This document shows positions 5,301 to 49,982 of a stretch of DNA of 64,000 nucleotides, piece after piece. A model generated the notes under the pieces. It did no database searches. It had not been told where the DNA came from and worked only from the letters and a program-made list of their open reading frames with translations. A program made the position numbers and the translations under genes. Within the stretch, counting starts at the first letter, position 1. Every line of letters starts with the position of its first letter. Source of the DNA: Candidatus Eiseniibacteriota bacterium (lineage in GTDB: Bacteria; Eisenbacteria; RBG-16-71-46). The stretch spans positions 19,085 to 83,084 of the forward strand of contig JANMQY010000030.1 in the NCBI GenBank assembly GCA_031370785.1, given 5' to 3'.

Positions 5301-5495
5301 GACCAGCGTTTCGACTTCTTCCGGCGCCAGACCCGGCGACTCGCTCAGGACCGTCACGGTTGGGCGGTTGAGGTCCGGGAACACATCCACGGGCAGCCGC
5401 AGGATCACCGCAGTGCCATAGATCAGGAGCAGCACGGCCGCCGCGACGACGAACAGTCGGTTTCTCAGCGCGAACAGGATGATTCGGTCAAACAT
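2382..5495 (-). CDS. Heavy-metal efflux RND permease (CusA/CzcA family)
   Basis: 1037 aa; DVFPDL, GELVDDAIV and RLVPVLMTAL motifs with the two-repeat RND layout. Confidence 0.95.
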   Translation of the reverse strand: MFDRIILFALRNRLFVVAAAVLLLIYGTAVILRLPVDVFPDLNRPTVTVLSESPGLAPEEVETLVSLPIETTLNGAPGVERVRSTSGIGLSVVTVEFAWGTDIYRDRQLVGEKLQLAAEHLPKGVAPAMGPVSSIMGEIMLLGLESSTGQTTPMEMRTLADWVVRQRLLTIPGVSQVIPIGGGVKQYQVRVSPQRLAALGLSLKEVEQAVGASNENTTGGYLEAQSQEYLIRNLGRLRNPEQLLNTVVATRNGVPVLLKEVASVGVNTRVKRGDGSVDGRPAVILSIQKQPGASTIDLTRRIEAALVELRPSLPKDVRMRPLFKQATFIEAALRNVEEALRDGAILVLIVLFLFLLNFRTTAITLTAIPLSFVTAAVVFHLFNISINTMTLGGLAIAIGELVDDAIVNVENVFRRLRENRHAEVPRPALEVVYRASSEVRNSIVYATILVVLVFMPLFALSGIEGRLFAPLGVAYIVSILASFVVSLTVSPALCLYLLPKARVMAEEKDSFVVRHLKAWDRRLLDFTLPHPGVVIGGAVVLVVAAAALVPFMGREFLPPFNEGTATINVVAAPGTSLSESNRLGTIAEQQLLGVPEVISTGRRTGRAELDEHAEGVHYTEIDVDFRRSKRSREQVLGDIRSRMAQIPGVFVNIGQPISHRLDHLLSGVRSQIAVKLFGNDLDLLRAKAAEIQTAMGTVPGVVDLQTEKQVLVPQIRIEGDRVALARYGLNVGDLNEALETALNGRVVSQVLEGQRTFDLVVRFDDASRGSLEAIRGALIDTPSGAKVPLAAIAAVEESRGPNVIQHENVQRRIVVSANVSGRDLGRVVEDIQKKVGAQVTLPTGYFITYGGQFESQQSATRLIGILSLFSLAAMFLVLYAHFRSVPIVLQILLNIPLALIGSVVAIFLTGGTFSVASLVGFITLTGIASRNTIMMVSHYLHLMKEEGEKFDMHMVIRGSLERLVPVLMTALTAGLALIPLVMSKGEPGKEILYPVATVILGGLISSTLLDTIVTPAVFYRFGRKSAERYLAGVSEES

Positions 5496-5507
5496 GATCG
5501 CGCTCCC

Positions 5508-32400: not shown

Positions 32401-33963
32401 GCAGATCGTCGGCTTCCTGCGCCCGTCCTCGGCCGGGCCTTCGCTGCTGAACGACGCCTTCACACCCGAGGCGGCGCCGTTCTGCGTCGCGCCCACGCTG
32501 ACGCAGTTCTTCGCGACCGCCGGTGAGCCGACCTGCGCCGCGGTGAAGGTGTTGCCGTTGGAGAAGAAGATCGTGAAGTCCTTGTGGTCCCACATGAACT
32601 GATCGACCGTCATCGCGTTGACGTCGTAATTGTTCGAGGCCGCGCCCCAGGAGTTGGACGACACGCGCGCCGCGCCGCCGGGATTGCCGAGGTAGGGCGG
32701 TTCGAACAGCAGATTCAGATCGCCCGGGGCGGTGATCGAGTTGGTGTCGTTGCCGGCGTCGGTGAAGAAGATCTTGGCCTTCATCGCCTGCCCGTCGCGC
32801 AGATCGGCAGCGAACGGAGAGTCGTCGCCGCAGATCGTGCCCGCGGTGTGCGTGCCGTGGAACGACGCGCCCGACACGTCGCCGAACCGGATTCCCGGAA
32901 GCGCGGCGCGGTAGGCGATGATCTTGCGGTGCGTCGGGAAGTCGCCGAAGGTCGTGATCGGCACCGCATTGTCGCGGAACTGGTTGTGCGAGGTCCGGAT
33001 TCCGCTGTCCGAAGTGTGCACCACCTGCCCTTCTCCGTGCAGACCCATGTCCCAGACACGGCGGCTGTTGGTGACGTTGGTCTGTACCACCCACTGCGCG
33101 GTTGAATTGTTGAGCACCGGCTGGTGATAGGGCTCGACCCACGCCACGTCGCTGCGCGACGCGATCGCCGGCGCCAGCGCGGCATCGATCGTGACCCGCA
33201 CGATCTTGTTCCGACCCGAGTCGGTGGCTTCGACGATCGATCCGCCCAACGCTTCGATGGCGCCGCGTTCGGCGGCGAGATCGGCGTCCGGGAACAGCAG
33301 GACCACCAGCGTGGTCGCGCCAATCAGCGAGTTCGACTCCGAGCTGAGTTTGTAGGCCGGCTGATAGGCGCCGACCCAGCGCACGAACGAGAGGCCCTCG
33401 AACCGGGCGCGAGCCGCATCGCTCATGCGCACGAGGAACGTATAGCGCGGAAGGTAGGAGACGACAGTGGCGCCCGCCGCCTCGAGCTGCTCGCGCTGAC
33501 CCGTCTGGATCGGCCCCGCGAACTGAACGAGATAGCTGCTCCTCTCGCCGACGGATGACTCCGTGGAGGTGAGACTCGAAACCGCCGCCGGCTCGCCGTC
33601 GCGAAGTGGATCGAAGCGGATCCCGTTGCCGAGCTGAATCTCGCCAGCGTCCGGGTACGCCGCGACCTGCTGCGTTCCGCGGCCGGCGCTGACGATCATG
33701 TCTCTCGCGGAGGTGCGGCCGGTCGAGACCACCGCGGGCGCAGCGCCCGATGGCCGAGCGGTGGCGTCGCGTGCCGCGGATGCCGGGCTTGCGGACGCCT
33801 GTGTGTCGCGACCGCCGTCCGGTTGCGGAGCCGGACGTGCGCCATAGGCGAGCGTGGCTGCGAGTGCCAGGCACGCGATGGTGGCGGCCGGTGGGATGAG
33901 CCGGCGTGCCCGAAGGGGCACAGAATGGAGTTGGGTCCTATGGGTGGGAACGCGCGGCTTCAT
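29422..33963 (-). CDS. Secreted multidomain S8 subtilase with a C-terminal FlgD-Ig/T9SS-like domain
   Basis: Catalytic DSG, HGTH and GTSMASP; GRRKP and NDLDL as in KP-43-like subtilases; QNAPNP...SGVYFYRL tail; AAGGAGG RBS. Confidence 0.92.
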   Translation of the reverse strand: MKPRVPTHRTQLHSVPLRARRLIPPAATIACLALAATLAYGARPAPQPDGGRDTQASASPASAARDATARPSGAAPAVVSTGRTSARDMIVSAGRGTQQVAAYPDAGEIQLGNGIRFDPLRDGEPAAVSSLTSTESSVGERSSYLVQFAGPIQTGQREQLEAAGATVVSYLPRYTFLVRMSDAARARFEGLSFVRWVGAYQPAYKLSSESNSLIGATTLVVLLFPDADLAAERGAIEALGGSIVEATDSGRNKIVRVTIDAALAPAIASRSDVAWVEPYHQPVLNNSTAQWVVQTNVTNSRRVWDMGLHGEGQVVHTSDSGIRTSHNQFRDNAVPITTFGDFPTHRKIIAYRAALPGIRFGDVSGASFHGTHTAGTICGDDSPFAADLRDGQAMKAKIFFTDAGNDTNSITAPGDLNLLFEPPYLGNPGGAARVSSNSWGAASNNYDVNAMTVDQFMWDHKDFTIFFSNGNTFTAAQVGSPAVAKNCVSVGATQNGAASGVKASFSSEGPAEDGRRKPTICAPGDGVTPLSGISSANGANDTGYKGLAGTSMASPTAAGAATLIRQYLTDGWYPTGAPNPANGFIPSAALIKAMSISSTDDDMPGHALPDNAVGWGRMKLDNALFFPGDAIRTALVDDNAGLTTGQYAEYQLYVTNTSVPLKITLCWTDREGNPASLTQLVNDLDLTVTDPNGVSYLGNVLTNSQSVPGGTADILNVEEGVRLNVPFAGRWTIRVGGTNVPFGPQPFAIAATGGVGNVSGLLSLDRHVYGRDDQIQVRVDDADAVGPVTVSVSSSTESTPEALTLSGGGGVFTGSIATTWLQPSGDGKVSVSHGDAVTVSYSDAAPAGVVSATASVDFDGPVITGVGATERGETQLVGWATNVQASSRVYYGTTQALGQATQAYPELVLSHAVLLSGLQPETEYFYDVESKDQGGNLTRDDNGGSHYRFVSGRRGDILVVIGDGSFPATNTYVDALLERGWNPAVLEGGTITNPLVGNRNAGLRSFTAVWWQVGQEQYPPVPDAARDSLDRLMAGGARLAMNGHDIAWAFTDPASGQYTPARKAWLQNTLHARFLEDPAAWVVNQGVATDPISDPYVAGVPYVGHRQGASGDEIELVPGSGTGAYVWRNTDATPDNIALRWESATPNGNASDAVWGGTPSKLLYNAFEWAQLVNVADRVDILDRSLVWLIGNDHPDVTVASPNGGEVIADSTIPVSWTEAPHGSATIAARSIRYSADGGRSWQLVTANAGASPYAWDVSGLTNGGTYRARVDVADNGSPSLNGRDASDGDFAIQRAGGDIAGPVVVAGSVRTNPNPMNNETVSTLFARVSDLATGGSRVNGAEWSQGVQPAPAGRGMWMDGTFEDGDVEVSGVIRVRILPAGAITLWVRGRDEAGNWGPASPRTFDVNGNPNVSVDGDVPVRFALEQNAPNPVAGAGTLIRYALPRSGRVELTVFGVRGERIRTVTSEFQPAGRRAILWDRRDDSGRQVPSGVYFYRLQLGNQHATRKMVVMN

Positions 33964-34212
33964 GACGACCTCCTTGGGCCTGGAAGCAGAAGCTGGTCGG
34001 CATGGCGTCCGACGCCACGGGCGAAAGCTCGCGACGCCGAGAACCCAGCCATGTGCTCCGAAGCATCGAGGAGTCGGCTTGAGAACGGCTTGAGTGGCGG
34101 AGGTCGAGTGAGGGGGCCGGGCGCAACACACCGGACCTAGCCTGCTCCAGCACCGCGAGTTGGCGCGGGCGCGAGCTTCAGCCAGTCGAGGTCGGCGACA
34201 TCACGCCAACCT

Positions 34213-34793: not shown

Positions 34794-36773
34794 TCAGCGC
34801 ATGAACGCCACGCGCTGCGTGGTCACACCTTCCGACGTCCCGAGCGAGATGAAGTACACGCCTGCCGGCACGCCGATCATGCGATCGGTCTTGCCATCCC
34901 AATTGCGCGTGTACTCGCCGGGGAGCATCATCCCCTCGTGGATCGTGCGGATCCGGCGTCCGGTCGCGTCCGCGACCGTGAGCCGCACGAACTCGGGGCG
35001 GCCGATGCGGAACACCACCGACGTGCCATTCGAGGCCGGATTCGGAGAAGGCGCGCTCAGCATCGCGCGTCCCGTGAACAGCGCGAGGCGGCTCGCCGAG
35101 GCCAGCCCCATGTAGGACGTGTCTCCGGCGCGGTCCGTCACCCGCAGGCGGTAGAAGTAGTTCGTGCCCGGCTGAGCCCCGGTGTCGAGCGCGAGAGTGG
35201 CCTGGCCCTCGGAGCTCAATTCGGTCTGGATCGGGCCCCACGGTCCTGGCTCCGCGATCGCGCGCTCCACGGTGATCCCGATCACGTCGGACGGATCGCC
35301 GAACTGCCAGCGCAGCAGGACGCCATCGCTCCGGCCTTCGGCGACGAACTGCGCGAGCGTCGTCGCCGTCGCGAAGTCGAACCACCCGATGTCCTCGAAG
35401 TGGTAGCGCGTGAGATCCACGCTGTCGTGGAGGTCGTTGTTGATGGCCGGTTCCATCAGCGCGTTCGGCAACATCGAGACGTCCCAGTGGGACACCGACG
35501 AGCCGCTCGCGAATGGATTCGGGGCGTACATCAGCGGATGACCGGCGTTGTCGGCACCCGCCTTGTTCACCGGATCGAGATTGAGCGTCACGTTCACGCC
35601 CGAGCCGAGATTCGCCTTGATGGCATTGCCATCGGCCTGCGAGATGCCGACGGACGGGATCGTGATGGTGGGATCCGAGCCGCCCATGCCCGGCAGGCCG
35701 GCCGCGACGTTGTTCGCGATGATCACGCCGATCGCGCCCGCGTTCTGCGCGGCCTTCACCTTGATCACGAACGTGCACGTGCCGCGGTCGATGAGCGCGA
35801 TGTTGCCGCTGATCGCCGCTGCGTTGGCGGCCGGCTCGCACCCGTCGTTGATGTTCGGGGCGACGCCGTCGTCATAGAGCACGACGTTGCCGGTGAGACC
35901 GCTCGCCGTGATCGCCGGCCCGAAGGACGCCGCCTGCACGGCATAACTGCCGGCGATGACGCCGGGTGAATTGATGAGCATGCGCGGACGCTGCGTCAGG
36001 TAGGAGCCCGCGGCCGTAACCGCCGCCGCACCGTCCCACACCAGTCCATTCACGCTGATCGCCGACGCCACCCGCTGCGCCGGGGTCTCCTGGTCCCAGT
36101 GAAGGCCCGTGGCGTTGTCCAGAAGGTACTTGTCGAAGATGCTCGGGAACGAGCTGTTGTAGTTGCCGCTCGACCCGCTGGTGGTGGTGCTGAAGCCGAG
36201 GCCGTGCCCGATTTCGTGGAGCACGACCGGGAGGAGCTCGATGTTGGCGCCCTCGAGGCCGTCGTAGCCGTAGTACCAGTAGATCGGAGGAGAGCCGAAG
36301 CATCCGGTATCGATGCTCAAGTTGAACGTGGCGTTGATGTCGGGATTGGTGGGGCTTAGATCCGCGAAAAAGAGCCGGTTCGCGAGCGACTGGTGGTACC
36401 AGTGGCCTGCAACCAGCGCGCCCGCGAAGTCGCGATGGATCGTGGTCGGCCCGGCGCTGCCCAGCACCGCGCTGGTGGGAGTACAGGTCTGTGCCGCGAA
36501 CTGCGCCCGCACCAGGATCGGGACCGTGCTGGGCAATATTCCGCCCCAGATGTTCGCCGCGTACTGGAACACGTTCAGTCGTTGTTGCCCGAGCGTGGTG
36601 CCCGGGTTGCCGCCGACCGGCGCGACCGGGGTGGGATCGTTGAAGCCCACGCCCGGGAGGTTGTTATTGACGATGGTAATCGTCGCGGCGCCAGCCGATC
36701 CGAATACGAGCGCGAGCGACGATGCGAATAGCAGCGGCAGGACGCCGAGCGAGATGCCTTTCGTGGTCGCCAT
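34794..36773 (-). CDS. Secreted zinc metalloprotease with a PA domain and a FlgD-Ig/T9SS-like tail
   Basis: HEIGHGLGF, PA motif IALIDRGTCTFVIKVKAAQNAGA, SSVSHWD, PNP...AGVYF. Confidence 0.88.
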   Translation of the reverse strand: MATTKGISLGVLPLLFASSLALVFGSAGAATITIVNNNLPGVGFNDPTPVAPVGGNPGTTLGQQRLNVFQYAANIWGGILPSTVPILVRAQFAAQTCTPTSAVLGSAGPTTIHRDFAGALVAGHWYHQSLANRLFFADLSPTNPDINATFNLSIDTGCFGSPPIYWYYGYDGLEGANIELLPVVLHEIGHGLGFSTTTSGSSGNYNSSFPSIFDKYLLDNATGLHWDQETPAQRVASAISVNGLVWDGAAAVTAAGSYLTQRPRMLINSPGVIAGSYAVQAASFGPAITASGLTGNVVLYDDGVAPNINDGCEPAANAAAISGNIALIDRGTCTFVIKVKAAQNAGAIGVIIANNVAAGLPGMGGSDPTITIPSVGISQADGNAIKANLGSGVNVTLNLDPVNKAGADNAGHPLMYAPNPFASGSSVSHWDVSMLPNALMEPAINNDLHDSVDLTRYHFEDIGWFDFATATTLAQFVAEGRSDGVLLRWQFGDPSDVIGITVERAIAEPGPWGPIQTELSSEGQATLALDTGAQPGTNYFYRLRVTDRAGDTSYMGLASASRLALFTGRAMLSAPSPNPASNGTSVVFRIGRPEFVRLTVADATGRRIRTIHEGMMLPGEYTRNWDGKTDRMIGVPAGVYFISLGTSEGVTTQRVAFMR

Positions 36774-38590: not shown

Positions 38591-41500
38591 CTACTCCCCG
38601 GCCATCTGCACCAGCGGCGGCGGCACCACGCCCGCCTGCTGCGCGGCCTTCGCGACCTTGAGCGGGACCAGCTTCGCGAACGCTTCGGAGAAGTGCCAGC
38701 GCTTCCACACACCTTCGAGGCGTAACGTGAGGTGCTCGCCCTCGATGCGCAGCGGAATGCCGCGGCGCCTGGCTTCGCGCGAGAGCAGCGGCGCGACGTC
38801 ACGGGTCCACTCCTCGGGCGAGGTCGCGGTCAGTACGTTGCCGCGATATTGCGCCGGATCGAGCTTCACCTCGGGGTCGAACACGAACACGCGCCCGGCG
38901 GCCGCGCCCGACATGAAGAACTTGGCGGAGTAGGGCCGGGGCCTGAGCGAGAGCTCGCCCTTCGCATCGGGCTTCCGCAGGCCCATCACGATGTGCAGCG
39001 AGTTGTCGCCGCCCGACATCAGGTACTCGAATGCGTACTCGTTGGGCGAGCCGAAGTGAACGGTCTTGAGCCCGGGCGCCGGGGTCTTGCCGTCGGCGAG
39101 GAACACCTTGTTCTGTCCGGCCACCGCGAAGCGCGAGCCCGAGTCCCACAGGCTGATCGTGCCGCCGTGCGCCGAGTACATGCTGGTGTTGAGTACGTCC
39201 TGCAGCACGAACAGGTAACCGGAGTCCGCCTTCATGCCCTGGTGGCTCTGCCCCTGTCCGTACAGCCAGATCTCGGCGCCCTCGAGCAGCGCGCCGATGA
39301 AGTCGCCGAACTCGCGCCCGTAGAGCTCGATCGTGACGCCCTTCGCCGGGCTGCTGTCCGGATTCGCCAGGTTCGTTCCCACGTAGCGCGGGCCACCGAT
39401 GAAGTCGTAGCCGATCAGGTTCTTCCACCCGAGGCGCACCGCTTCGCTCACGATCCGCGAAGCGGAGTTGAGCCCGAACGACTCGCTCGCGAACCCGGCG
39501 AAGTCGATGACGAGCACATCGCGCACCGGATCGTTGGGCGACGCCAGATCGTCGCGCGTGTCGAGCGTGAGCCGGCCGTAGCGCCCGACGCCGCGAGTCG
39601 GATGCGACAGCACATCGAACAGCAACGGCAACTGGTCGAGGATGCGGTAGAGCCCGCCCTCAGCCTCTCCCATCCCGCCACCCTCTGGCGCCGCTTTGCG
39701 TCCGCCGTCCGTCAGGTACTCGACGCTCGAGAGCGCCTTGCCGCCCAGATCGCAGAAGGCGAGTCGCTTGCGCAGCTCGGTGAGAATGCGGATCGCCGCC
39801 GGGCGGCGCGGATCGCTGTCGTGCGCAAAGGCGGGCAGCGCGACTTCGGCCAGCCAGCGCAGGCTCTCGAAGCTGAGCGCCTTTGCACCTCCGAGCACGG
39901 AATCGATCAGCTCGTTGGCCGGTGGTGGCAGCAGGTCGTCGGGCCCGAACATGCGCTTCGCGCTCATCGCGCCTGCGCCTTCCAGCGTTCGCGCGAGTTG
40001 TGAGAGGCGCTCCTCGACCATCGCGCGCCACGCGCCATCGGCGCGCTCGGCTACCTCTTCGAGCGGAGCGAAGAGATCCACCTTGGCGCCCGCGCGCTCG
40101 ACCAGCACCGGTTCGCCGAAGCGGTTGCGCAGATCGATCGTGCCGCTGCCGGGCTCAGTGAATGCTTCGAACACTCCGCCATGTTCGCGGCGTTGCGGGT
40201 TTCCTCCCGGGCGCATGCTGAAGCGCAGGTCGGCGGCCGCATCGCCGAGGATCCCTTGCTGGTGCAGCACGCGCAGCATGCTGTCCGCGATCTTGGCCTC
40301 GCTCCCGTTCGCCACGGCGCGCACGCCGCCGGCCGCGGAGTCGTGAGTCACGATGATCTCGTGCGGCCTCAGGAACTTGATGTCCATGTTCTCGCGGAAG
40401 CCGACCACGCGCGTCTCCGCGCCGCCGCCGGTGGGCACGCGCCGCGACTCGACGATCGTGAACTTGTACGGGCCGGTCGGAGTGAGCTGCACGTAGTTGG
40501 TCATGAGCAGGCGCAGCTTCGCCCTTCGATCCTCGTCCATGCCGGCGAGATCGAAGCCGGTGATCGGCGAGATGATCTGGGAAGCTTCCTCGGTGGTCAG
40601 CCCGAGCACGCGCCGCGTGAAGTCCACGAGGTACGCCGCATACTCGGTGTCGGTCAGCGCCTTTCGCGCGTAGACCGAATCGCCGTGGAATAGCTCGGCG
40701 CGTTCGCCCATGCTCGGATCGACGTGCACGTAGCCGAACTCGTTCAGGAACGGCGAGGTCGAATCGACCGCGACCTGCTCGCCGTTGTGCATGAGCAGCA
40801 CGTTGTACGCCTTGAACGGATGCGCGCCCGCGGGATTGCCGCGGCCTTCGGGGTCGATCGCCGGTGAATTGGTCGGATAGCGATGGTGCATGCCCCACAC
40901 GTGCGCGTAGAGCGCGGGCGTGGCGAACGTGTTTCCCTTCACCGTGACCTCGACGCCACCCTTCTCGGCCGCGCCCGGGTAGCCGGCCCAGAATCGATCG
41001 AAGTCGAAGTACTCGGGGATGGTGTGCGTCCAGCCCGAGATCTTGATCGCACCGAGATCCTCGCCCATCGAGACGACGAAGCCGCGGCGCTTGTCCGCAT
41101 ACATCCCTTCGGGCGCATCGACCGGCCTGTGCGTGCGGTAGTAGCGCGAGTCCAGGATGTGGGCGAGCGCGGTGAAGTACTCCTCGCGCACATCGGCGAT
41201 GAAGTCGCGCAGGCGGCGCCCGGTATCTCCACCGTCGGACCGATCGCCAGCGCGGGATCCGGCCTCCGCGTCGTCGAGCGCCGCCATCAGCGTCTCATCG
41301 CTCAGGTCGCCGTACTTGGTGCGGCGCTGCAGCCAGTGCGTGCTCGCGACCAGCGCCCGCCCATAGCGGCGCTGCACCTCGCGCTTGAGCTCCACGAAGA
41401 AGGTGTAGAAGTCGCCCGGGTTCTCACGCAGGTCCGCCAGTCTCCAGCCGTCCTCGCCGGCGTAGCGTTCGCGCACCGGCAGGCGGAACTCGAAGAGCCG

Positions 41501-44500
41501 GTCCTGCGCTTCGACCAGCGACATCTCGCTGCCCGCAGCGTCGAAGAACCGGCAGCCGTCGAGATGCATGAGCATCTCCCGCATCGAATCCTCGCGATCC
41601 GGTCCGATGGTGTTGAAGATCAGGCAGGTCTTCTCGCGCAGCGCGGCGGGCGCAAAGCCCGCGAAGTCGATTCCGCCGCCGCGGTTGTTTCCGCCGTTGA
41701 ACGAGCGGCACGCCGACTCCCAGATCGCGTGCACCGTGACCGGCTCGGTGACCGCGAGCGAGCCGACGCGGCACGAGTCGTGGTCGGCTTGGGCGCGCAC
41801 TGGCGCCTTGGCCGGCTCGTGCCGCGGCATCACCAGCAGATCGGTGCGCCCGCGCAGCTCGCGGATGTCGCGGATCATCAGCTCGGGCCGGGCTTCGAGC
41901 GCGTTGGCATCGAGCGCTCCGCTCTCGCGGTTCAGCGCGTCGATGAGCACCGCGAGCTTGACCATGTTGAGCGCGGTCCAGTTGCGGAATCGCGAGCGCA
42001 TCAGCGCGCGGTCGTTCTGCAGCGTCAGTTCGGGCTTGGTGGTGATGCCGCCGCGCGGGCAGTCGAGGTGGCAGTTGCCGCACTGGTTGCAGCCGAACGC
42101 CACCGCCTTGCCGATGCTCGCCTCCATCAGCGCGTCGGCGCCGGCGATCAGCACCTTGAGCATGTCCATCTCGCCGCGGATGCCGCCCGAGGCGAACAGC
42201 CGCGTGCCGCCGCCCGCGCCGAACGGCGCGCCGTTCAGGTCTCGGATGCTCCTGAGCTCGCCGCTCCGGTCGAGATCCACCTTCTCGTGCACCAGCGCGT
42301 GATGGGTGTGCAGGATGCTGCGGAAGATGTCGGGCCAGCCAACGTGCGAGGAATCCGCGTGGTAGTTGCCCGAGCCGCCGAGTCCCGCGTCGATGAGCAG
42401 GTAGTCGACCACGAAGTTCGACCACATGCCCGCCGCCACGTAGCGCGTGTAGTTGGAACCGGTGATCTTGATGCCGCAGTGGTTGTGATACAGCAGCCAC
42501 AGCCACACTTCGGAGGGCATGTCCTCGATCGAATAGATGTCGTGCTTGGGATCCGGCGAGAGCGCATCGGTGCCGACCGGAATGCTGCGCGCGCGGCTCA
42601 CTGTCGGAGTCACCTTCGCGCCCGAGAGCCGCCCGCCCTTGCCGGGCTTCGCACCCTGATTGATCTTGATCTCGACATCGAGCACGCGGCGCAGGTCGGC
42701 GGCGTGGATGCCGAAGTGTCCGCTCGCCGCCTGCATGCTCTCCCACTTCATGTCCTCGTCGCTCGCGAGCCGGATCGGACCGCCTTCGCCCGACGAGGTC
42801 ATCGCGAGGCCCGCGTTGCCCTCGACGCGCGCGGTGAGGAAGTCTTCGGATGCGGCCCCGAGCGAGATGCTCGAGTGGTTGACCGGTCCATGCCACACCG
42901 GCTCGCGGAATCCGAACCCGGATAGCACGAGGCCGCCCCTTGGATCGCGGCGCACCGTGATCGTGCCGTTCACCGAAGCGCGGAGCAGGGAGAGGCCGTG
43001 CCCGCCGTGCCCGGCCGCAGTGAGCTCGACGGTGCTATCCCCGCCCTCGGGATCGCGCGCGACCAGCCACAATGGCTTCTCTCCGGCAAGCACCGCTTCG
43101 AGCGCGTTCCCTTTTTCGAGCTTCATTTCGAATCCGCCTCGCGCATCCGCGGTGAACGAGATCAGCGGGGTTCCGAGCTCTCCCGCCGCGATCGTGACTT
43201 CGGCGCGCGGCGCGACCGCACCCGGGCGATTGAAGCCACGCGGCACCGCGAGCGAGATGTAGTCGAGCAGCGAAGGATCGTGTTTCAGGCGGTCGAGCGA
43301 CCAGGCCAGCGATTCGCGAGAGAGTCTGACCCCGATCGCATCGAGCGAGAACGCGCCCATGTCGCTCTCCATGAAGAAGTCATCCACCGTCGGTATCTCG
43401 CCCGCCGCCATGCGGTAGATCACCTCGAGGAAGTCGGCGTTCAGGTTCCGGTTGGAATTCTCGAGATGATAGTTCGCATTGCGATGCGCGAGGATCCTGG
43501 CGGCGTGCACCAGCGGCAGATCCGCGCGGATCTCGCGCAGCAGGGCCGAGACGCGGAAGCGCTCGCGAATCCCGCGCGGAACCGGCTCCGCGGCGAGGCG
43601 CCGCGCGTTGAGCGCCACGTTGGTGGCCGCGAACTCGGGCGTGGCCAGCGCGTCGACCTCGCGCACCCAGTCCTCGGTGAGCGTGATCGCCATGGTGTTG
43701 CCCGAAGTCTTCTGGATGTCATCGATGCCCATGCACGACAGGAAGTCGAGAATGCTGTGCTGCCAGCAGGTGAGCGTATGCAGCGCCTCGTCGCGCAGCT
43801 CTTCGGGATCGAAGCCGCGCAGCTTGGCCACGATCGGCGCGGGATCGGCGCCGTCGTACACGTCCACCAGCTCGGGCAAGAGCGCCAGGCCGGCGAGGTG
43901 CGTCATGGCGCCGCCGTTCGCGCCGAGCAGCACCGATTCGTAGACCGTCGCGGCCGAGGACTGCGTGTCGTGATCCCCGCCCGCGGAGACCAGCTGCACA
44001 CGCGCGCGCAGGAACCGGGTCTTGAGGAAGTTGTCGATCAAGGGCGTGAGCCGCCAGCTCTTCTCGGCGGCGGTGTGGTAGTGGATCATCGCGACGCCGT
44101 CGGTGCGGGCCGCGTTCTCCAGCGCTTCCCAGAATCCTTCGCCGAGCCGCAGGTAGACCGAAACCAGCACTTCCGGATTCACTGCGCGGAGCGCGGCGAC
44201 GTGCGCGGCCAGATCCGCGCTCCACACCGCCTCGACCAGTCGCGCCGAGGCCAGCGCCTCGGTGAGCGTGACCGCATGGGCGGTCGGCGCGGCCAGATCC
44301 GCGACGTGCCTTGGCTCGAGGCGCAGCATCAGGTTCTCGACGTGCGGGCGCAGCGCGGCGTTGTGCTCGAGGTAGCGGTCGGCCTCGACCACCACCAGCG
44401 AGCGGGTGTGCAGGTCGTTCGCGTCGTCAGCCGCCGCAATCGCCTCGAGGTAGGCGCGCTCGATCGTCTCGCCGTCGCCGTAGGGAATCGGACCCACGAT

Positions 44501-45064
44501 CATTGGCATGTCGAGCCGCACCGAACGCAGCGGCAGCCGGGTCTGGCCCTCGGCGGTGCGGAACAGCACCGCCGGATGCTTGCGCACGATGTCCCACGCG
44601 GTCGAGAACTCCTCGCGCAGTCCGTCGTTGGCCGGATGCGTGATCGCGGCGTGCGAGAAGTAGGCGCGCCAGTAGCCGTAGTGCCACGCCGCGCCCAGGG
44701 TGAGCGGCTCGCTGCGGAAGCGCTCCTTGATCACCTTCTCGAGATCGAACGAGGTGATGCCGAGCTGCGGGATCTCGCGCGACACGCGCGAATACCTGGC
44801 GAGAAACGCGCGCCCGCGCTGCCCGCGCGACATCTTCCAGAACGCGTCTTCGGAAATGTCGTGGCGTTCGAGCAGATACGACAGCAGCGCGCGCTTGGGC
44901 TTGCGGTCTTCGACCTGCGGGCTCTCGGGATCGACGATCAGTGTGAGCAGATCCTCCCACACCGCGAGCTCCTCGCGGAATGCCGCGCCTTTGCGCCTTC
45001 CGTTCCCCGCGCCGTCGCCGTTGCCGCGAAGCTCCTCCGCGATCCGCTCGATGCCGATGCTCAC
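38591..45064 (-). CDS. Domain-permuted glutamate synthase large-subunit-like protein (2157 aa)
   Basis: GEGG, QAASGHFG, EIKINQGAKPG, HDIYSIED and a Cys cluster; then HDSC, HHRYPT, AHPF, HNGE and TDTE; then a GltB3-like region. GTGA overlap with the upstream gene. Confidence 0.88.
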   Translation of the reverse strand: MSIGIERIAEELRGNGDGAGNGRRKGAAFREELAVWEDLLTLIVDPESPQVEDRKPKRALLSYLLERHDISEDAFWKMSRGQRGRAFLARYSRVSREIPQLGITSFDLEKVIKERFRSEPLTLGAAWHYGYWRAYFSHAAITHPANDGLREEFSTAWDIVRKHPAVLFRTAEGQTRLPLRSVRLDMPMIVGPIPYGDGETIERAYLEAIAAADDANDLHTRSLVVVEADRYLEHNAALRPHVENLMLRLEPRHVADLAAPTAHAVTLTEALASARLVEAVWSADLAAHVAALRAVNPEVLVSVYLRLGEGFWEALENAARTDGVAMIHYHTAAEKSWRLTPLIDNFLKTRFLRARVQLVSAGGDHDTQSSAATVYESVLLGANGGAMTHLAGLALLPELVDVYDGADPAPIVAKLRGFDPEELRDEALHTLTCWQHSILDFLSCMGIDDIQKTSGNTMAITLTEDWVREVDALATPEFAATNVALNARRLAAEPVPRGIRERFRVSALLREIRADLPLVHAARILAHRNANYHLENSNRNLNADFLEVIYRMAAGEIPTVDDFFMESDMGAFSLDAIGVRLSRESLAWSLDRLKHDPSLLDYISLAVPRGFNRPGAVAPRAEVTIAAGELGTPLISFTADARGGFEMKLEKGNALEAVLAGEKPLWLVARDPEGGDSTVELTAAGHGGHGLSLLRASVNGTITVRRDPRGGLVLSGFGFREPVWHGPVNHSSISLGAASEDFLTARVEGNAGLAMTSSGEGGPIRLASDEDMKWESMQAASGHFGIHAADLRRVLDVEIKINQGAKPGKGGRLSGAKVTPTVSRARSIPVGTDALSPDPKHDIYSIEDMPSEVWLWLLYHNHCGIKITGSNYTRYVAAGMWSNFVVDYLLIDAGLGGSGNYHADSSHVGWPDIFRSILHTHHALVHEKVDLDRSGELRSIRDLNGAPFGAGGGTRLFASGGIRGEMDMLKVLIAGADALMEASIGKAVAFGCNQCGNCHLDCPRGGITTKPELTLQNDRALMRSRFRNWTALNMVKLAVLIDALNRESGALDANALEARPELMIRDIRELRGRTDLLVMPRHEPAKAPVRAQADHDSCRVGSLAVTEPVTVHAIWESACRSFNGGNNRGGGIDFAGFAPAALREKTCLIFNTIGPDREDSMREMLMHLDGCRFFDAAGSEMSLVEAQDRLFEFRLPVRERYAGEDGWRLADLRENPGDFYTFFVELKREVQRRYGRALVASTHWLQRRTKYGDLSDETLMAALDDAEAGSRAGDRSDGGDTGRRLRDFIADVREEYFTALAHILDSRYYRTHRPVDAPEGMYADKRRGFVVSMGEDLGAIKISGWTHTIPEYFDFDRFWAGYPGAAEKGGVEVTVKGNTFATPALYAHVWGMHHRYPTNSPAIDPEGRGNPAGAHPFKAYNVLLMHNGEQVAVDSTSPFLNEFGYVHVDPSMGERAELFHGDSVYARKALTDTEYAAYLVDFTRRVLGLTTEEASQIISPITGFDLAGMDEDRRAKLRLLMTNYVQLTPTGPYKFTIVESRRVPTGGGAETRVVGFRENMDIKFLRPHEIIVTHDSAAGGVRAVANGSEAKIADSMLRVLHQQGILGDAAADLRFSMRPGGNPQRREHGGVFEAFTEPGSGTIDLRNRFGEPVLVERAGAKVDLFAPLEEVAERADGAWRAMVEERLSQLARTLEGAGAMSAKRMFGPDDLLPPPANELIDSVLGGAKALSFESLRWLAEVALPAFAHDSDPRRPAAIRILTELRKRLAFCDLGGKALSSVEYLTDGGRKAAPEGGGMGEAEGGLYRILDQLPLLFDVLSHPTRGVGRYGRLTLDTRDDLASPNDPVRDVLVIDFAGFASESFGLNSASRIVSEAVRLGWKNLIGYDFIGGPRYVGTNLANPDSSPAKGVTIELYGREFGDFIGALLEGAEIWLYGQGQSHQGMKADSGYLFVLQDVLNTSMYSAHGGTISLWDSGSRFAVAGQNKVFLADGKTPAPGLKTVHFGSPNEYAFEYLMSGGDNSLHIVMGLRKPDAKGELSLRPRPYSAKFFMSGAAAGRVFVFDPEVKLDPAQYRGNVLTATSPEEWTRDVAPLLSREARRRGIPLRIEGEHLTLRLEGVWKRWHFSEAFAKLVPLKVAKAAQQAGVVPPPLVQMAGE

Positions 45065-47721
45065 CGGGGCACCTGCTTCCGGAAATCTTCGAGCGCCATG
45101 AACCACTCGCGGGTCGGCGCCTCCATCACGCGCAGCGTCTGCCCGCCGTTCAGGTGATTGGCCGGGCACACTTCGACGCAGGTGCCGCAGCCGATGCACA
45201 GCTCCTGCTCGGTGGTGATCCAGCGCGGGTCCAAGCCCTCGTACTCCTTGTTGGCCGCGGTCGGACACACCGCGACGCACGCCGCACAGTGAATGCACGT
45301 CGCCGCGGGGCCGGCGTCCGCCTCGGCGCGCAACAGCACGTAGCGCGTGGTGCCGGCGAGCGCGGCCGGCGTGCGCTTCTGGTAGCCGCCCGGGCGGACG
45401 TTCAGGAAGTCGCGCGTGTAGCGGGTCGAGCCGCGCAGCGTGGTGAGGATCGCTTCGTGACGCTCGCGGCGCCTCGGGCGTGCGGCATCCGATGCCTGCT
45501 GCATGGCCTGGTAGAGCGGCAGGTGCGGGATGCCGGCCTGGCAAACCTCTTCGCAGTTGCCGCAGCGCATGCAAAGGTCGAGCAGCGTGCTGCCGACTTC
45601 GCTCACGCCTTCGCCGGCGTGCATCGCCTCGCCCAGATGCGTGAGCATCTGCGGGAGGCGGATCTTCGATTCGTGGAAGATCGGACATACGCTGTTGCAC
45701 TCGCCGCAATTGACGCAGTTGAGCGCGCGCGCCGATGCTGCCTGCGCGCCGTCGATCGCGGAGGCGGGCATGTCTGCATCAGCATCGACCGGCGGCACCG
45801 CGAACCGGGCGCCGACCAGCGCCGGCTCGCCCCGACCCCGCGCCGGACCGGGAAGTGCGCGCAGTACTGCGCGCGCCGCGCGCACCAGCCATGCGACCGC
45901 CGGCGCTTCGCTCGCGCCGCGCATTACTGATACTCCGGGAACGAAGCTGCCCGCGACCAGCGCACCGAGCACACCGTGCAGGCGCAGGCCGAGACGCACG
46001 CCGCGGTTGAGCAGCGCGCGCGGATCGAGACCGCGCTTGATGCCGGCGAAGCGCTTCGCCTCCGCCTTTCCCACCTGCCGCGAGAGCCACGCCGCCTGCC
46101 AGCGCCCGAGCACGTAAGGCCGGCCCTGATGGCGCGCCATCGCGAGGTCGACCAGCGCCGGGGCGAGCAGCAGGTCGACCGCGAATGCGCCGCTGCGATG
46201 GTCGGTGAGATAGCCGCCGATCACGAGCGCGGTCCCCTCGGCGAGGAAGTACACCTCGGCGTCCAGCTCGTTGCCAGTGTTGTGCGCGAGCCGCGTGGCG
46301 CGCGGAAGAAATCCCGCGACTTCCGAAGCAGGCATCAGGATCTCGGCGGCCAGAAGCCCGGGCCCAAGCCGCTTGGTCTGCTGCGGCTTGAAGCGCTCGG
46401 CCGCAAAGCGCGCGCTGTCCGCATCGAGCACGCGCGGACGCCACGGACAGCTCCTCAGCAGCACCGCGAATGCGCGCGCCTCTTCGATGCTCAGGAAATC
46501 GACGAACAGGTAGGCCGCGCCCACGCTGTCGGGCGCGATCGTGGCGCCGAGCTTGCCCGGCGCGACGATGCGGGTCCACGGCAGGTGCGTGTCCGTGGAG
46601 AGCGCGCTCGGCGCGGTGCGCCACGTGCGCGAATCCTCGTCCTGCCACACCCGGCGCGTGTGGTGCATGTGCGAGGCGGAGAGCAGCTTCACGTTCGCCG
46701 GGCGCGCCGCCTGGTTGGCGCCGATCCAGCCCACCGCTTCGAGCGCATCGCTCTGCGAATCGAAGGCCAGCAGGAACGCGCCGATCTCGGGACGCTTTTC
46801 GACCGCGACCGTCAACTGCAGCACCAGCCCGAGCACACCCTCGCTGCCCGCGAGATCCGCGAGCGTCATCGGCTGGAGTGCGCGCTCGGCAAACCAGGCG
46901 GCGCTCTCGCCGGCCGCGACCGTCCGGCGCTTCAAGCCCTCGTCCGGCACGTCGAGCCGCCCGTCATCATGGAATCTCACGTGCTCGCCGTCCGGCAGCA
47001 CGACATCGGCGGCGCGCACGTTGTCCAGCGCGCGGCCGCGGCCGAACGCGTTCATGCCGATCCCACCGGTCACGAACCAGCCGGCGAGCGTGCCGCCGAG
47101 ATTCGACGGATAGACGCGGAGCGCGAGCCCCCGCTCGGCGAGCTTCGCATGAACGGTGCGCAGCCGCGCACCGGCGCCGACCACCACCACGCCCGAGCCG
47201 GGCTCGATGTCGATCGTGTCGAGGCGCGACAGGTCGAGCGTCAACCCCGCGTCGTTCGGCACCGCGCCACCCATCGCGGTCGAAGCCGCGCCGCGTAGCG
47301 TGACCGGCACGTTCGACTCGCGCGCCCAGCGCAATGCGCGGGTGCACTCGGCGAGGTTGACCGGCTGGAAGATCACGTCCGGAACCGCGCTCGTCAGCGT
47401 GCGGGTGAACATCCTGCCCAGATAGACGTTCTGATCGCGATCCGCCTCGGTGCGCAGGAACGCGTCCGTGACGATCCGCTCGCTCAGCGAGGCCGAGACG
47501 CCATCCTTCTCGGCATCGGTGCTGAGCGCGGTGTGCAGGGCCTGCGCCAGCAGGAGCGTGCGCTCAGGAGCGCGGCGCTGATCGAGAGCGACGCCCTCGT
47601 CGAAGAAGAAATTGAGGTCGGAGATGCGTTCGCGCTTCGCGGCCGCGCGCGGGTCGGAGGTTGGCCCCGGTGCTGCGTCGGGCGGCCGGCCGAGGGTCTT
47701 CTCGAGAGTGGAGTCGGTCAT
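45061..47721 (-). CDS. FAD-linked (VAO/PCMH) oxidoreductase with four CxxCxxCxxxC Fe-S motifs
   Basis: PDVIFQP, RGAAS, GSEGVLG, LDPRALLN; CVNCGECNSVC, CMRCGNCEEVC, CIHCAACVAVC and CIGCGTCVEVC. Confidence 0.9.
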   Translation of the reverse strand: MTDSTLEKTLGRPPDAAPGPTSDPRAAAKRERISDLNFFFDEGVALDQRRAPERTLLLAQALHTALSTDAEKDGVSASLSERIVTDAFLRTEADRDQNVYLGRMFTRTLTSAVPDVIFQPVNLAECTRALRWARESNVPVTLRGAASTAMGGAVPNDAGLTLDLSRLDTIDIEPGSGVVVVGAGARLRTVHAKLAERGLALRVYPSNLGGTLAGWFVTGGIGMNAFGRGRALDNVRAADVVLPDGEHVRFHDDGRLDVPDEGLKRRTVAAGESAAWFAERALQPMTLADLAGSEGVLGLVLQLTVAVEKRPEIGAFLLAFDSQSDALEAVGWIGANQAARPANVKLLSASHMHHTRRVWQDEDSRTWRTAPSALSTDTHLPWTRIVAPGKLGATIAPDSVGAAYLFVDFLSIEEARAFAVLLRSCPWRPRVLDADSARFAAERFKPQQTKRLGPGLLAAEILMPASEVAGFLPRATRLAHNTGNELDAEVYFLAEGTALVIGGYLTDHRSGAFAVDLLLAPALVDLAMARHQGRPYVLGRWQAAWLSRQVGKAEAKRFAGIKRGLDPRALLNRGVRLGLRLHGVLGALVAGSFVPGVSVMRGASEAPAVAWLVRAARAVLRALPGPARGRGEPALVGARFAVPPVDADADMPASAIDGAQAASARALNCVNCGECNSVCPIFHESKIRLPQMLTHLGEAMHAGEGVSEVGSTLLDLCMRCGNCEEVCQAGIPHLPLYQAMQQASDAARPRRRERHEAILTTLRGSTRYTRDFLNVRPGGYQKRTPAALAGTTRYVLLRAEADAGPAATCIHCAACVAVCPTAANKEYEGLDPRWITTEQELCIGCGTCVEVCPANHLNGGQTLRVMEAPTREWFMALEDFRKQVPR

Positions 47722-47890: not shown

Positions 47891-48724
47891 CTACTTCCCC
47901 ATCAGAATCGCGGTCACGTTGATGAACGACAGCACGAAGCCCGCCGCGGTGACGAGCAGCAGGCCCAGCGCTAGCAGTTGCACGCCCAGGCTCTCGCGCT
48001 TGTCGTCGTTGAAGCGCATCGCTTCGGCGATCACCCAGCCGCCGGCGAAGCCGCCGGCGTGCGCCCAGATGTTCACGTTGCTCATCGTGAAGCCGAGCAC
48101 GAAATTGATGATGACCCAGGGCCATAGCTGGCGCGTAAGCATGGTGTGGCCGACCCGCCGCCCGTACACGATGAGCGCGGCGAACAGGCCAAAGATGCTG
48201 CCCGAGGCGCCGACCGTCGCCGAGCCGCTCACCAGGTTCGAAAGCACGAAGCCCGCCGCACCGCTCAGGCTGAAGATCACGAACGCTCGCGCCGGGCCAT
48301 AGACCTGATTCACGCCGGGGGCAAGATTTCGCACGATCATCAGGTTGAAGAAGATGTGGAGCAGGCTGCCGTGCAGGTAGATCGCGGTGAAGACGGTCCA
48401 CCACCAGCCCTGCCGCCACGCGATGCCGCCGGTCATGCCGAGCTGATACAGCGCCTGGTTGCCGGGCGCGAGGATGTTGAAGAGTCCTCCGCCGCCCGAG
48501 AGGATCGCGTCGGGCTGGAGCAGGAGCGAAGCCACGTAGAGCGTGACGCACGCAACCATGATCAGCCGGATCACGTCGAACTGGCGTCCGAAGAAGCGCT
48601 GAACCACGGGCGCCCATCCGTAGAGTCCCGGGCGCCACGCGCCACAGAACGGACAGCGCTCTTCGCTGACGCTGATGAGTTTCCCGCACGAGGGGCACAG
48701 CATGGAACCCTGGTTCTTGCGCAT
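47891..48724 (-). CDS. Rhomboid intramembrane protease with an N-terminal zinc ribbon
   Basis: CPSC/CPFC, HxxxxHxxxN, GASG and AHAGG. Confidence 0.92.
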   Translation of the reverse strand: MRKNQGSMLCPSCGKLISVSEERCPFCGAWRPGLYGWAPVVQRFFGRQFDVIRLIMVACVTLYVASLLLQPDAILSGGGGLFNILAPGNQALYQLGMTGGIAWRQGWWWTVFTAIYLHGSLLHIFFNLMIVRNLAPGVNQVYGPARAFVIFSLSGAAGFVLSNLVSGSATVGASGSIFGLFAALIVYGRRVGHTMLTRQLWPWVIINFVLGFTMSNVNIWAHAGGFAGGWVIAEAMRFNDDKRESLGVQLLALGLLLVTAAGFVLSFINVTAILMGK

Positions 48725-48746
48725 GGCTCTCCTTAGTGCGATCTCA

Positions 48747-49982
48747 TCATCCTCGCGTTGCATCTGCTGCGGGGCGTGCAGTGGACTTCGCCATCTCTTC
48801 GGGCGCTTTGCGCCCCTTGAAGGCGCGGTAGAGCAGCACGTCGTAGGTGAGCTTTAGCCCCGCGCCGATGAACAGCGGCGCCGTCATCGAGGTGCCGCGC
48901 ATGAACAGCCCGGCGAACGAAGGCGCCACCGCCCACGCGCCGAGGCGCACCAGCGCGGTGAGGGTCGAGGCCACGGTGCGCTCTTCCGGCTTCACGACCG
49001 CCATCACGTACGACTGCCGCGTCGGCACGTCCATCTCGACCAGCCCCTCACGCAGCAGGAAGAGTGCAGCCGCGATCGGAAACGTAGGCGCGAACGGCAC
49101 GGTGAGGAGCAGCAGGCTCGAGGGCACGTGCGTGAACACCATGGTCTTCACGAGACCGATGCGCCTGGCGAGCCACGCCGCCGCCATGTGCGAGCCCGCG
49201 TTCATCACTCGCGCGCCGAAGAACAGCAGGCCGATCACCTCTTCGTTGGTGCCGAAGCGCTTGAAGAAGAAGAACGACAGCAATGCGGTGGTGAGAAATC
49301 CTCCGCCCAGCCCATCGATCGAGAACAGCGCACAGATGCGCCACAGCACTCCCCGGCTCTCGGGGCTGAGCACCACACGCGTGCGGCGGGCTGAGGATTC
49401 GACGGCGGGCGAAAGCCTGAGGTAGAGAATTCCAGTCGCGAGCATCATTGCCGCATAGAGCACGAGTACGGCGCGCAGCGAGTCGGGGTTGCTCATGTGC
49501 GCGGCGCGGCGCAGCAGCACGGGCAGCCCGGCGAGCAGGCTGCCCAGCGCATGGCCCGCGTCCAGCAGCACGTTGTATACGGCCAGTACGCGTGTGCGCT
49601 CGGCGTCGGTAGCGGTCGCGGGCAGCACCGCCTGTTCGAGCGCGAGCGCCGCGCCACGGTCGCGGCCCATGCCGTTGAGCATTCCGAAGCATGCCGCGAG
49701 CGCGAGCGCCCAGGCGTTGGTCGCGATCGACGCGGCCACTGCGCCAAGGGCGCCGAGCAGCGCGAGCGCGATCAGGAAGCGCTTGCGCCCGATGCGATCG
49801 CCCGAGAACATCGCGACCGCGGTGGCAAGCCCGGCGCCGGCGAGCCCCGCGCCGATCACGAGCCCGATCTGCGTGGTGTCGAGCCCGCACGCGGCGAGGT
49901 AGATACCGAGCACGACGCCCACCATTCCGGTGGCGAGGGCGCGCACGAACGCGGCGGTGTAGAAGATGCGGCGGTCGTTCAT
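48747..49982 (-). CDS. MFS transporter
   Basis: GDRIGRK, MDVPTRQSY and many TM segments. Confidence 0.9.
   Translation of the reverse strand: MNDRRIFYTAAFVRALATGMVGVVLGIYLAACGLDTTQIGLVIGAGLAGAGLATAVAMFSGDRIGRKRFLIALALLGALGAVAASIATNAWALALAACFGMLNGMGRDRGAALALEQAVLPATATDAERTRVLAVYNVLLDAGHALGSLLAGLPVLLRRAAHMSNPDSLRAVLVLYAAMMLATGILYLRLSPAVESSARRTRVVLSPESRGVLWRICALFSIDGLGGGFLTTALLSFFFFKRFGTNEEVIGLLFFGARVMNAGSHMAAAWLARRIGLVKTMVFTHVPSSLLLLTVPFAPTFPIAAALFLLREGLVEMDVPTRQSYVMAVVKPEERTVASTLTALVRLGAWAVAPSFAGLFMRGTSMTAPLFIGAGLKLTYDVLLYRAFKGRKAPEEMAKSTARPAADATRG

Follow-up and report, generated by a model that had tools for sequence, protein, structure and literature searches.

Which protein hands electrons to a glutamate synthase whose gene is not accompanied by gltD? 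This question is raised by a stretch of 64,000 nucleotides from a Candidatus Eiseniibacteriota genome (contig JANMQY010000030.1; the whole stretch is called the window below). Here, the gene of a VAO-type flavin adenine dinucleotide (FAD)/iron-sulfur flavoprotein (gene 1) overlaps the start of a gene encoding a very large glutamate-synthase-like protein (gene 2, the giant). For the glutamate synthases that have been characterised, the electron source is NADPH, NADH or ferredoxin, according to the available text of two reports (PMC8097209, PMC3448663). A sequence-only reading of the locus had proposed that the flavoprotein stands in for GltD and feeds electrons from a 2-hydroxyacid, for example 2-hydroxyglutarate, to the synthase. 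We put at roughly 0.6 the probability that both genes encode one glutamate-synthase-type enzyme complex. If this is true, the complex would represent a fourth kind of electron input, with a VAO-type flavoprotein hard-wired to the synthase by four clusters.

The flavoprotein and its linkage to the giant

Pfam, an alignment of 31 homologues (48-72% identity) and the gene coordinates bore out what had been read from the letters for gene 1, i.e. a VAO/PCMH flavoprotein with four CxxCxxCxxxC motifs and a GTGA overlap with the synthase gene. The motifs are C669/672/675/679, C717/720/723/727, C809/812/815/819 and C842/845/848/852, and all 16 cysteines are invariant among the homologues. No CCG domain follows Fer4_8 among the Pfam matches. 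The Pfam scan of gene 1 detected neither PF14691 (Fer4_20) nor PF07992 (Pyr_redox_2), so that the protein lacks the domains by which a GltD would be recognised. The absence of gltD from the window, noticed earlier, was confirmed, and a scan of 16 neighbouring open reading frames (ORFs) gave nothing GltD-like. In the whole assembly (3.44 Mb, 147 contigs), Fer4_20 has a single match, on contig C66. Canonical GltB is absent from this genome as well: neither GATase_2 nor GXGXG was matched there, and Glu_synthase had no strong match besides the giant.

A database search with the giant gave 756 matches at E <= 0.001, including Glu_synthase relatives that are further removed. The best 120 of these 756 are proteins of about 1830-2340 amino acids from uncultured bacteria, with 56-79% identity; relatives carry automatic names such as 'glutamate synthase-related protein', 'FAD-binding protein' and 'glycolate oxidase'. 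Co-occurrence of the two genes, a check suggested with the initial proposal, was scored using one representative genome per species. This sample contained 63 giant loci, labelled as Eisenbacteria, Thermoleophilia, other Actinomycetota, Planctomycetota and Krumholzibacteriia. A locus was considered informative when the N-terminus of the giant was present and at least 300 nt were available upstream, which applied to 47 loci, the other 16 being truncated and unscorable. A gene 1 homologue was found upstream of the giant, on the same strand, in 47 of these 47 loci, with an extrapolated gap of 204 nt or less in 41 of them. A gene for a GSIII glutamine synthetase (GS) is located between both genes in five of the 47 (L009, L012, L018, L024 and L027), and GSIII also adjoins the system in the genomes G038, G122, G149 and G123. 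At one locus (L048), an unrelated insert of 1.4 kb (4608-6001) separates the flavoprotein gene from the giant; it contains an ORF of about 330 amino acids resembling, by eye, a ClpP/SppA-type serine peptidase.

More distant relatives from the same phylum are organised as split operons. In two of them (L070 and L072), the gene order is VAO/iron-sulfur flavoprotein, ferredoxin plus degenerate barrel, ferredoxin plus flavin mononucleotide (FMN) domain, and GATase_6 plus GXGXG. The flavoprotein of split operons is 661-712 amino acids long, lacks the ferredoxin tail and is homologous to residues 46-770 of gene 1 (BLASTP E 2e-42); the EHG motif of typical hydroxyacid dehydrogenases is absent there too. 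In the split relatives, each of the two Glu_synthase-like proteins begins with a 2x[4Fe-4S] module, in agreement with the likeness previously noticed between the last two motifs of gene 1 and the ferredoxin head of archaeal-type GltB2. The C-terminal ferredoxin of gene 1 corresponds to the module heading the next protein in the split form. In the split GATase_6 plus GXGXG protein, a Cys follows a short leader (..EGG|CGVLGF). Fused forms also exist. A search among longer proteins gave six matches, three of which were scanned with Pfam: P0244 (2525 amino acids) and P0247 (2866 amino acids) combine FAD_binding_4, Fer4_8, ferredoxin, Glu_synthase, GATase_6 and GXGXG in one chain, in this order, and the FAD and Glu_synthase domains alone were seen in P0242 (1931 amino acids).

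That gene 1 takes the place of GltD as partner of the synthase is well supported by this context: linkage in all informative loci, orthology in the split form, fusions and the lack of a canonical GltB all designate a dedicated partner. The synthase is not an ordinary GltB. A complex prediction with giant residues 140-1015, gene 1 residues 795-886 and three 4Fe-4S clusters scored 0.00, which is evidence neither way. In two metatranscriptome runs (12% of sampled words shared), matches consisted only of 18-25-nt snippets in long unrelated contigs, and these runs show neither expression nor co-transcription.

Two further observations concern the variant loci. Clustering of ORFs merged the two genes into one family, and ORFs of 2700-3200 amino acids are present at some loci; at L026 the gene 1 match is in another frame, and the long ORF is no fusion but a high-GC run-on in the frame of the giant. 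For the split relatives of G012, G016 and G017, no adjacent VAO partner was found. In the G017 locus (L071, G017:C2, 8597-13318), which contains an 822-amino-acid central plus FMN protein and a 1085-amino-acid GATase plus GXGXG protein, a GAF histidine kinase and an ANTAR response regulator are encoded directly upstream, a context that suggests RNA-level antitermination control.

The structure of gene 1 was modelled with AlphaFold2 (AF2; pLDDT 80.7, pTM 0.84). The ferredoxin tail (776-886) is poorly defined, with low pLDDT when folded alone. Residues 54-577 superpose on mouse D-lactate dehydrogenase 8jdp with Z 26.9 and a root mean square deviation (rmsd) of 2.6 A over 435 of 455 residues (VIA). 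LctD (7qh2_C, Z 25.6) and D-2-hydroxyglutarate dehydrogenase (6lpn_A, Z 24.8) follow, and AGPS, cytokinin and eugenol oxidases come next (Z 22-23). At the sequence level, the FAD-oxidase_C cap gave a Pfam match below threshold only, for its tail at 539-574, and NCBIfam GlcD reached 61.8 bits for a cut-off of 567.9. In a profile alignment with LctD, GHAGDGNLH is opposite YYLADGEAL and SGEHGIG is opposite PYV-LGRW, in a stretch where the alignment is low-scoring; PYVLGRW is invariant in the 31 homologues. By this alignment, weak as it is in that stretch, the metal-binding and catalytic His/His/Glu-His residues (GDGNLH and EHG motifs) are replaced in gene 1, so that a metal-dependent mechanism of 2-hydroxyacid oxidation is not retained. 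The caveat that no EHG motif is visible was thus correct. A 2-hydroxyacid donor such as 2-hydroxyglutarate is unsupported: despite the D-lactate-dehydrogenase-like fold, the catalytic residues are replaced, and other VAO enzymes score at Z 22-23. The FAD-binding motifs and the cap residues R443, K450, R451, E460, E489, Y491, Y536, R540 and W541 are invariant in the 31 sequences; the charged ones argue for a putatively live active site in gene 1. At the loci scanned, the neighbours of the pair give no conserved hint at its substrate. At L045 (13581-17234, minus strand), a gene located a few kb downstream on the opposite strand encodes a protein of 1217 amino acids with Fer2_4, Fer4_20 and Pyr_redox_2 (a GltD-like core), a 4Fe-4S ferredoxin and TPP_enzyme_C. 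The same family occurs at L034, L041, L055, L057 and L066, in Thermoleophilia and Actinomycetes.

Domain architecture of the giant

The giant is a permuted, fused relative of glutamate synthases with its predicted nucleophile Cys in the middle of the chain. Its modules are ordered as degenerate barrel, FMN/[4Fe-4S] domain, glutaminase and putative beta-helix, instead of the glutaminase-central-FMN-beta-helix order of GltB. Pfam and NCBIfam recognise the FMN/synthase domain alone (PF01645, residues 727-943), the sole NCBIfam match being gltB PRK11750, below cut-off. This domain matches residues 894-1116 of the solved GltB 6s6s_A (phmmer E 1.1e-20), with conservation of SGEGG, QGAKPG.GG and SP.P.HDIYSIED. 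A profile of 25 full-length giants searched against the PDB found the FMN domain alone and aligned the GXGXG stretch non-significantly; the glutaminase and beta-helix assignments therefore rest on the AF2 model.

For this model, residues 1080-2157 were folded with a 40-sequence alignment (pLDDT 78.6, pTM 0.84). Foldseek ranked glutamate synthases at the top (E 1.4e-7), then GlmS, GFAT and PurF. VIA-align superposed the model on ferredoxin-dependent glutamate synthase (Fd-GOGAT) 1ofe_A with Z 22.7 and rmsd 3.6 A over 590 residues, model residues 19-1069 corresponding to residues 1-1507 of the chain, to its end. GlmS, PurF and GFAT aligned with Z of about 16, and FwdC (5t61_C) matched model residues 802-1059 with Z 7.5. 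With 1ofe_A, 3ooj_E and 1ecb_D, GlmS and PurF included, the first aligned pair consists of model residue 19, which is Cys1098, and residue 1 of the chain. The stretch D1096-S1097-C1098-R1099-V1100-G1101 is invariant in the 25-40 giant homologues aligned, and so are R1395-x-x-T1398, H1426-N-G-E1429, T1471-D-T-E1474, S758-G-E-G-G762 and Q803-G-A-K-P-G808. We take the RxxT, HNGE, TDTE, SGEGG, QGAKPG and four-Cys motifs to be equivalent to active-site motifs of GlmS, PurF and GltB; Cys1 is excepted, being placed by the structural alignment.

Other parts of the giant are more difficult to recognise. GATase_2 is unmatched, and the glutaminase is identified at the fold level only. PF01493 (GXGXG) is unmatched in the giant and in its whole genome, and matched in the split and fused relatives. 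The central domain (PF04898) is likewise unmatched; the first 720 residues gave, as an ESM Atlas lead only (score 0.84), an N-terminal domain near Glu_synthase/Glu_syn_central clusters. Residues 130-455 have a homologue (BLASTP E 2e-10) in the split operon L070, a protein composed of a ferredoxin and a partial Glu_synthase domain.

Catalysis by N-terminal nucleophile (Ntn) amidotransferases depends on a free amino group at Cys1, and self-cleavage is therefore predicted between Ser1097 and Cys1098, which would expose Cys1098. The residues preceding Cys1098 have pLDDT below 50 in the model. If the prediction is true, this permuted architecture with a mid-chain Ntn Cys would have its 2157-residue protein cut by itself into two functional halves.

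Proposed mechanism, nitrogen metabolism and competing explanations

From the domains, folds, invariant residues, linkage and fused and split forms observed in our analyses, we infer that the two proteins form a complex, that the giant cleaves itself, that glutamine and 2-oxoglutarate are the substrates, and in which direction electrons flow. The FAD of gene 1 would exchange two electrons with a substrate. Electrons would run from FAD through the two Fer4_8 clusters, the two ferredoxin clusters and the [4Fe-4S] cluster of the giant to FMN and 2-iminoglutarate. The class-II glutaminase domain, with Cys1098 exposed by self-cleavage, would free ammonia from glutamine; ammonia would pass to the FMN/[4Fe-4S] domain, where 2-oxoglutarate would be reductively aminated via 2-iminoglutarate. 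The beta-helix and the degenerate second barrel would serve as scaffold. A rough estimate of ours from standard potentials, not a computed value, suggests that a donor near -190 mV would suffice for the reaction. The proposed cluster path would mirror the chain of NADPH-dependent glutamate synthase (NADPH-GltS), which runs from FAD through 2x[4Fe-4S] and [3Fe-4S] to FMN in the available text of its description (PMC8097209). A swap of the input module has a precedent, from gene context alone, in the putative F420-dependent glutamate synthases of methanogens, as presented in the available part of that report (PMC3448663).

The distribution of GS bears on the role of such a complex. The genome carrying the window is 100% complete by markers; GS gave no match in it with PF00120 or with a GSIII protein query, and two glutamate dehydrogenase (GDH)-type genes are present, on contigs C133 and C32. 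We extended the survey to a phylum sample of 151 genomes with a completeness of 80% or more. The giant is found in 26 of them, and at least 19 of these 26 have no PF00120 GS. Seven carriers have GS, three of them (G038, G122 and G149) with GSIII beside the giant. GS is lacking from 24 of the 151 genomes. In 22 of these 24 there is either a giant (19 genomes) or a relative of the split form (G043, G107 and G137, as deduced from family tallies), the flavoprotein being adjacent to the split relative in G043 and G107 and not seen for G137. Among the 117 genomes with no match to the profile of the giant C-half, two lack GS. The GS-less carriers belong to five families (f1, f2, f12, f16 and f17). 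Outside the phylum, all five giant-bearing genomes tested have GS, and four of the five have no GATase_2; there, the giant looks like the sole glutamate synthase beside GS. These five bearers rule out, as a universal rule, that the giant always replaces GS. Matches to PF04898, the mark of canonical GltB, were limited to 3 of the 151 genomes, two of them weak, and with so few a test of anti-correlation with GltB is uninformative.

The GS pattern may reflect few loss events, related genomes not being independent, and GS-less peptide degraders could import glutamine. Downstream of the pair, the window encodes an S8 subtilase of 1569 amino acids (29422-34131, minus strand) and a PA-domain protein of 659 amino acids (34794-36773, minus strand), each ending in a FlgD_ig-like domain; these two proteins fit a protein-degrading lifestyle.

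Several of these results weigh against a glutamate synthase fed by gene 1. This genome and at least 19 of the 26 carriers in the phylum lack GS, and where GS is absent a GS-GOGAT cycle cannot be the role of the complex. With two GDH genes, glutamate can be made without it. Judging from the alignments, the residues that serve catalysis and metal binding in the closest structural relatives are missing from gene 1, which may oxidise no 2-hydroxyacid. The sequence signal of the giant is weak, Pfam, NCBIfam and the PDB profile all seeing its FMN domain alone. In the encoded protein, 1097 residues precede the glutaminase Cys, an arrangement not known to us from any class-II amidotransferase, and cleavage is a prediction.

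Other explanations were therefore weighed with the one we prefer. It is unlikely that the giant is no glutamate synthase and moves another amide or amine nitrogen to a 2-oxoacid, like MgsABC. This system uses three GOGAT domains for other chemistry next to a GS-like gene, according to the available part of its report (PMC6237917). The GATase and beta-helix parts of the giant are too divergent for Pfam and its glutaminase domain has large insertions, which would suit such a departure. The FMN-site signature is nevertheless that of GltB, the 2-oxoglutarate-site motifs are invariant, and a path of five clusters implies net redox chemistry. Furthermore, the loci with a neighbouring ligase gene encode a genuine GSIII, with its GSIII_N domain, and not a 430-amino-acid enzyme of the GmaS type. 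We hold it to be distinctly improbable that gene 1 is only a conduit or scaffold, with a catalytically inactive VAO site and with electrons entering at the exposed clusters from free ferredoxin or a different protein. The loss of the canonical catalytic residues, the flexibility of the ferredoxin tail when folded alone and the split relatives that lack a VAO protein (L071 of G017, and no adjacent partner found in G012, G016 and G017) would fit this idea; retention of the VAO module across the split, two-gene and fused forms, together with the FAD motifs and the many charged cap residues that are invariant in 31 sequences, speaks for a working flavoprotein. Finally, it is hardly credible that the giant is served by the GltD-like protein of contig C66, gene 1 having an unrelated function. 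That protein is the one Fer4_20 plus Pyr_redox_2 protein of the genome, but its gene (about 2895-4760, L004/L074) comes directly after an Amidohydro_1 gene on a contig of 5.2 kb, a context that we take to be typical of pyrimidine breakdown, of the dihydropyrimidine-dehydrogenase type. Moreover, gene 1 accompanies the giant at all 47 informative loci, and some organisms encode the two as one polypeptide.

The direction of the reaction could also be reversed. It is quite unlikely, in our opinion, that the same complex works oxidatively, glutamate being oxidised at FMN and its electrons reaching, via the clusters, first the gene 1 FAD and then an acceptor. A more specific scheme for the GS-less Eisenbacteria appears very unlikely: ammonia from glutamate oxidation at the FMN site would tunnel back to the self-cleaved Ntn site and convert another glutamate there to its amide, electrons would leave via five [4Fe-4S] clusters to the VAO FAD and an oxidant, and this ATP-independent route to glutamine would displace GS. 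Oxidative operation would fit the presence of the giant or a split relative in 22 of the 24 GS-less genomes of the phylum, spread over five families, and the lack of GS in just 2 of the 117 non-matching genomes. VAO-family flavoproteins often reduce oxygen or other oxidants, and conversion of two glutamates to glutamine and 2-oxoglutarate with release of two electrons would be favourable with an acceptor above about -70 mV, by our own estimate from standard potentials. On the other hand, GS is present in 5 of 5 giant bearers tested from other phyla and in 7 of 26 within the phylum, and a GSIII gene inside the operon fits the ordinary GS-to-GOGAT direction. Formation of the amide from free glutamate at an Ntn site would have no activation step, and no adjacent VAO partner was seen in G137. 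The association itself may come down to few losses among related, non-independent genomes, and glutamine uptake is possible for an organism whose window is rich in secreted peptidases.

Comparison with known systems and neighbouring genes

We compared the pair with GltB/GltD of Azospirillum brasilense (1ea0, 2vdc and 6s6s) and B. subtilis (7mfm). The [3Fe-4S] cluster of GltB has three Cys ligands, as opposed to the four-Cys cluster motif of the giant. The giant also differs from GltB in having its glutaminase after the FMN domain, its Cys internal at 1098, an extra N-terminal degenerate barrel and no Pfam central domain. As opposed to GltD, which is adrenodoxin-reductase-like, gene 1 belongs to the VAO type of FAD proteins, has four [4Fe-4S] clusters and lacks an NAD(P)H site. 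Shared with GltB/GltD, as these appear in the available text of PMC8097209, are the signature motifs of the FMN domain, the class-II glutaminase fold, a Cys at the structurally equivalent position, a putative beta-helix and the chain of clusters. The giant is of glutamate-synthase type by its FMN domain, glutaminase fold and putative beta-helix, but it departs from that type in domain order, in the lack of a recognisable central domain and in its partner. Fd-GOGAT of Synechocystis (1ofd, 1ofe and 1llw), the best structural match of the giant C-half, likewise has no GltD; it uses free ferredoxin, whereas the ferredoxin module is built here into a flavoprotein translationally coupled, or fused, to the synthase.

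The archaeal GltB1/GltB2/GltB3 enzymes and the putative F420-dependent FGltS(I/II) of methanogens, as far as the available text describes them (PMC3448663), resemble the system in a ferredoxin-headed FMN subunit, a four-Cys motif and a swapped electron-input module. The split relatives of the phylum have such archaeal-type, GltB2-like subunits, i.e. a ferredoxin-headed FMN domain. In contrast to FGltS, the input module is a VAO/PCMH flavoprotein and not an FrhB/FpoF-type F420 protein, and three or four subunits are fused in one chain of 2157 amino acids. With D-lactate dehydrogenase, LctD, D2HGDH and GlcD, gene 1 shares its fold, and it has a Fer4_8 dicluster as found in GlcF and HdrC-like proteins. 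It differs from the D-2-hydroxyacid dehydrogenases by the missing His/His/Glu-His and the extra ferredoxin module, and from GlcF/HdrD-type proteins by having Fer4_8 with no CCG. MgsABC is built from GltB1-, GltB3- and GltB2-like parts beside a GS-family ligase; in the available part of its report no VAO/iron-sulfur partner is described, and the ligase is a small GmaS, not GSIII (PMC6237917). No GmaS-size ligase or mgd-like gene was found among the neighbours that we scanned. We found no paper on a VAO/iron-sulfur-linked or permuted glutamate synthase in the full-text literature, a search that did not cover subscription journals.

The pair is common in uncultured lineages of soil and sediment (Eisenbacteria, Thermoleophilia and Planctomycetota). 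GS is either inside the operon or missing from the genome, which is an unusual tie, and this tie makes a basic question on the nitrogen metabolism of these phyla testable with two cloned genes. The features of the two genes are listed in Table 1.

Table 1. Positions of the two genes and of their domains and sites in the window
Feature	Position	Strand	Evidence
Gene 1 (P0001), VAO-type FAD/iron-sulfur flavoprotein, 886 aa	45061..47721	-	ORF, Pfam, 31-homologue alignment, AF2 model
FAD_binding_4 (PCMH-type, PF01565), residues 114-250	46972..47382	-	Pfam E 3.9e-28
Cap/substrate domain, residues ~251-577, D-lactate-dehydrogenase-like fold without His/His/Glu-His site	45991..46971	-	VIA 8jdp; profile alignment
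Fer4_8 dicluster, residues 666-731 (motifs 1 and 2)	45529..45726	-	Pfam E 3.3e-16; Cys invariant
C-terminal 2x[4Fe-4S] ferredoxin module, residues 807-855 (motifs 3 and 4)	45157..45303	-	Pfam Fer4_10/Fer4_9, E ~1e-14
GTGA stop/start overlap of gene 1 and gene 2	45061..45064	-	TGA stop 45063-45061; GTG start 45064-45062
Gene 2, permuted fused glutamate-synthase-like protein, 2157 aa	38591..45064	-	Pfam, PDB search, homologue alignment
N-terminal degenerate Glu_synthase-like (barrel) domain, residues ~130-455	43700..44677	-	BLASTP; ESM Atlas lead
FMN/synthase domain, residues ~727-1010, invariant SGEGG, QGAKPGKGG, SPDPKHDIYSIED	42035..42886	-	Pfam Glu_synthase E 9.6e-47
Four-Cys cluster motif C992-x2-C995-x2-C998-x3-C1002-P	42059..42091	-	Four Cys and P1003 invariant, 25 sequences
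Cys1098 codon, predicted glutaminase nucleophile and predicted self-cleavage site Ser1097|Cys1098	41771..41773	-	Start of structural alignment; invariance
Class-II (Ntn-type) glutamine amidotransferase, residues ~1098-1650, large insertions	40115..41773	-	Foldseek, VIA, invariant HHRYPT, HNGE, TDTE
Putative C-terminal GXGXG-type beta-helix, residues ~1881-2138	38651..39424	-	VIA alignments

Upstream of the pair and on the same strand, the window encodes a rhomboid protease (47891-48763, minus strand) and an MFS transporter (48747-49982, minus strand). A rhomboid gene is also located upstream of the pair in at least six other loci (family F4), and ABC ATPases are encoded downstream of it at other loci. 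In 12 loci from Thermoleophilia and Actinomycetes (L034, L040, L042, L045, L046, L052, L055, L061-L063, L066 and L067), a divergent gene for a P-type (E1-E2) ATPase (family F1) adjoins the pair.

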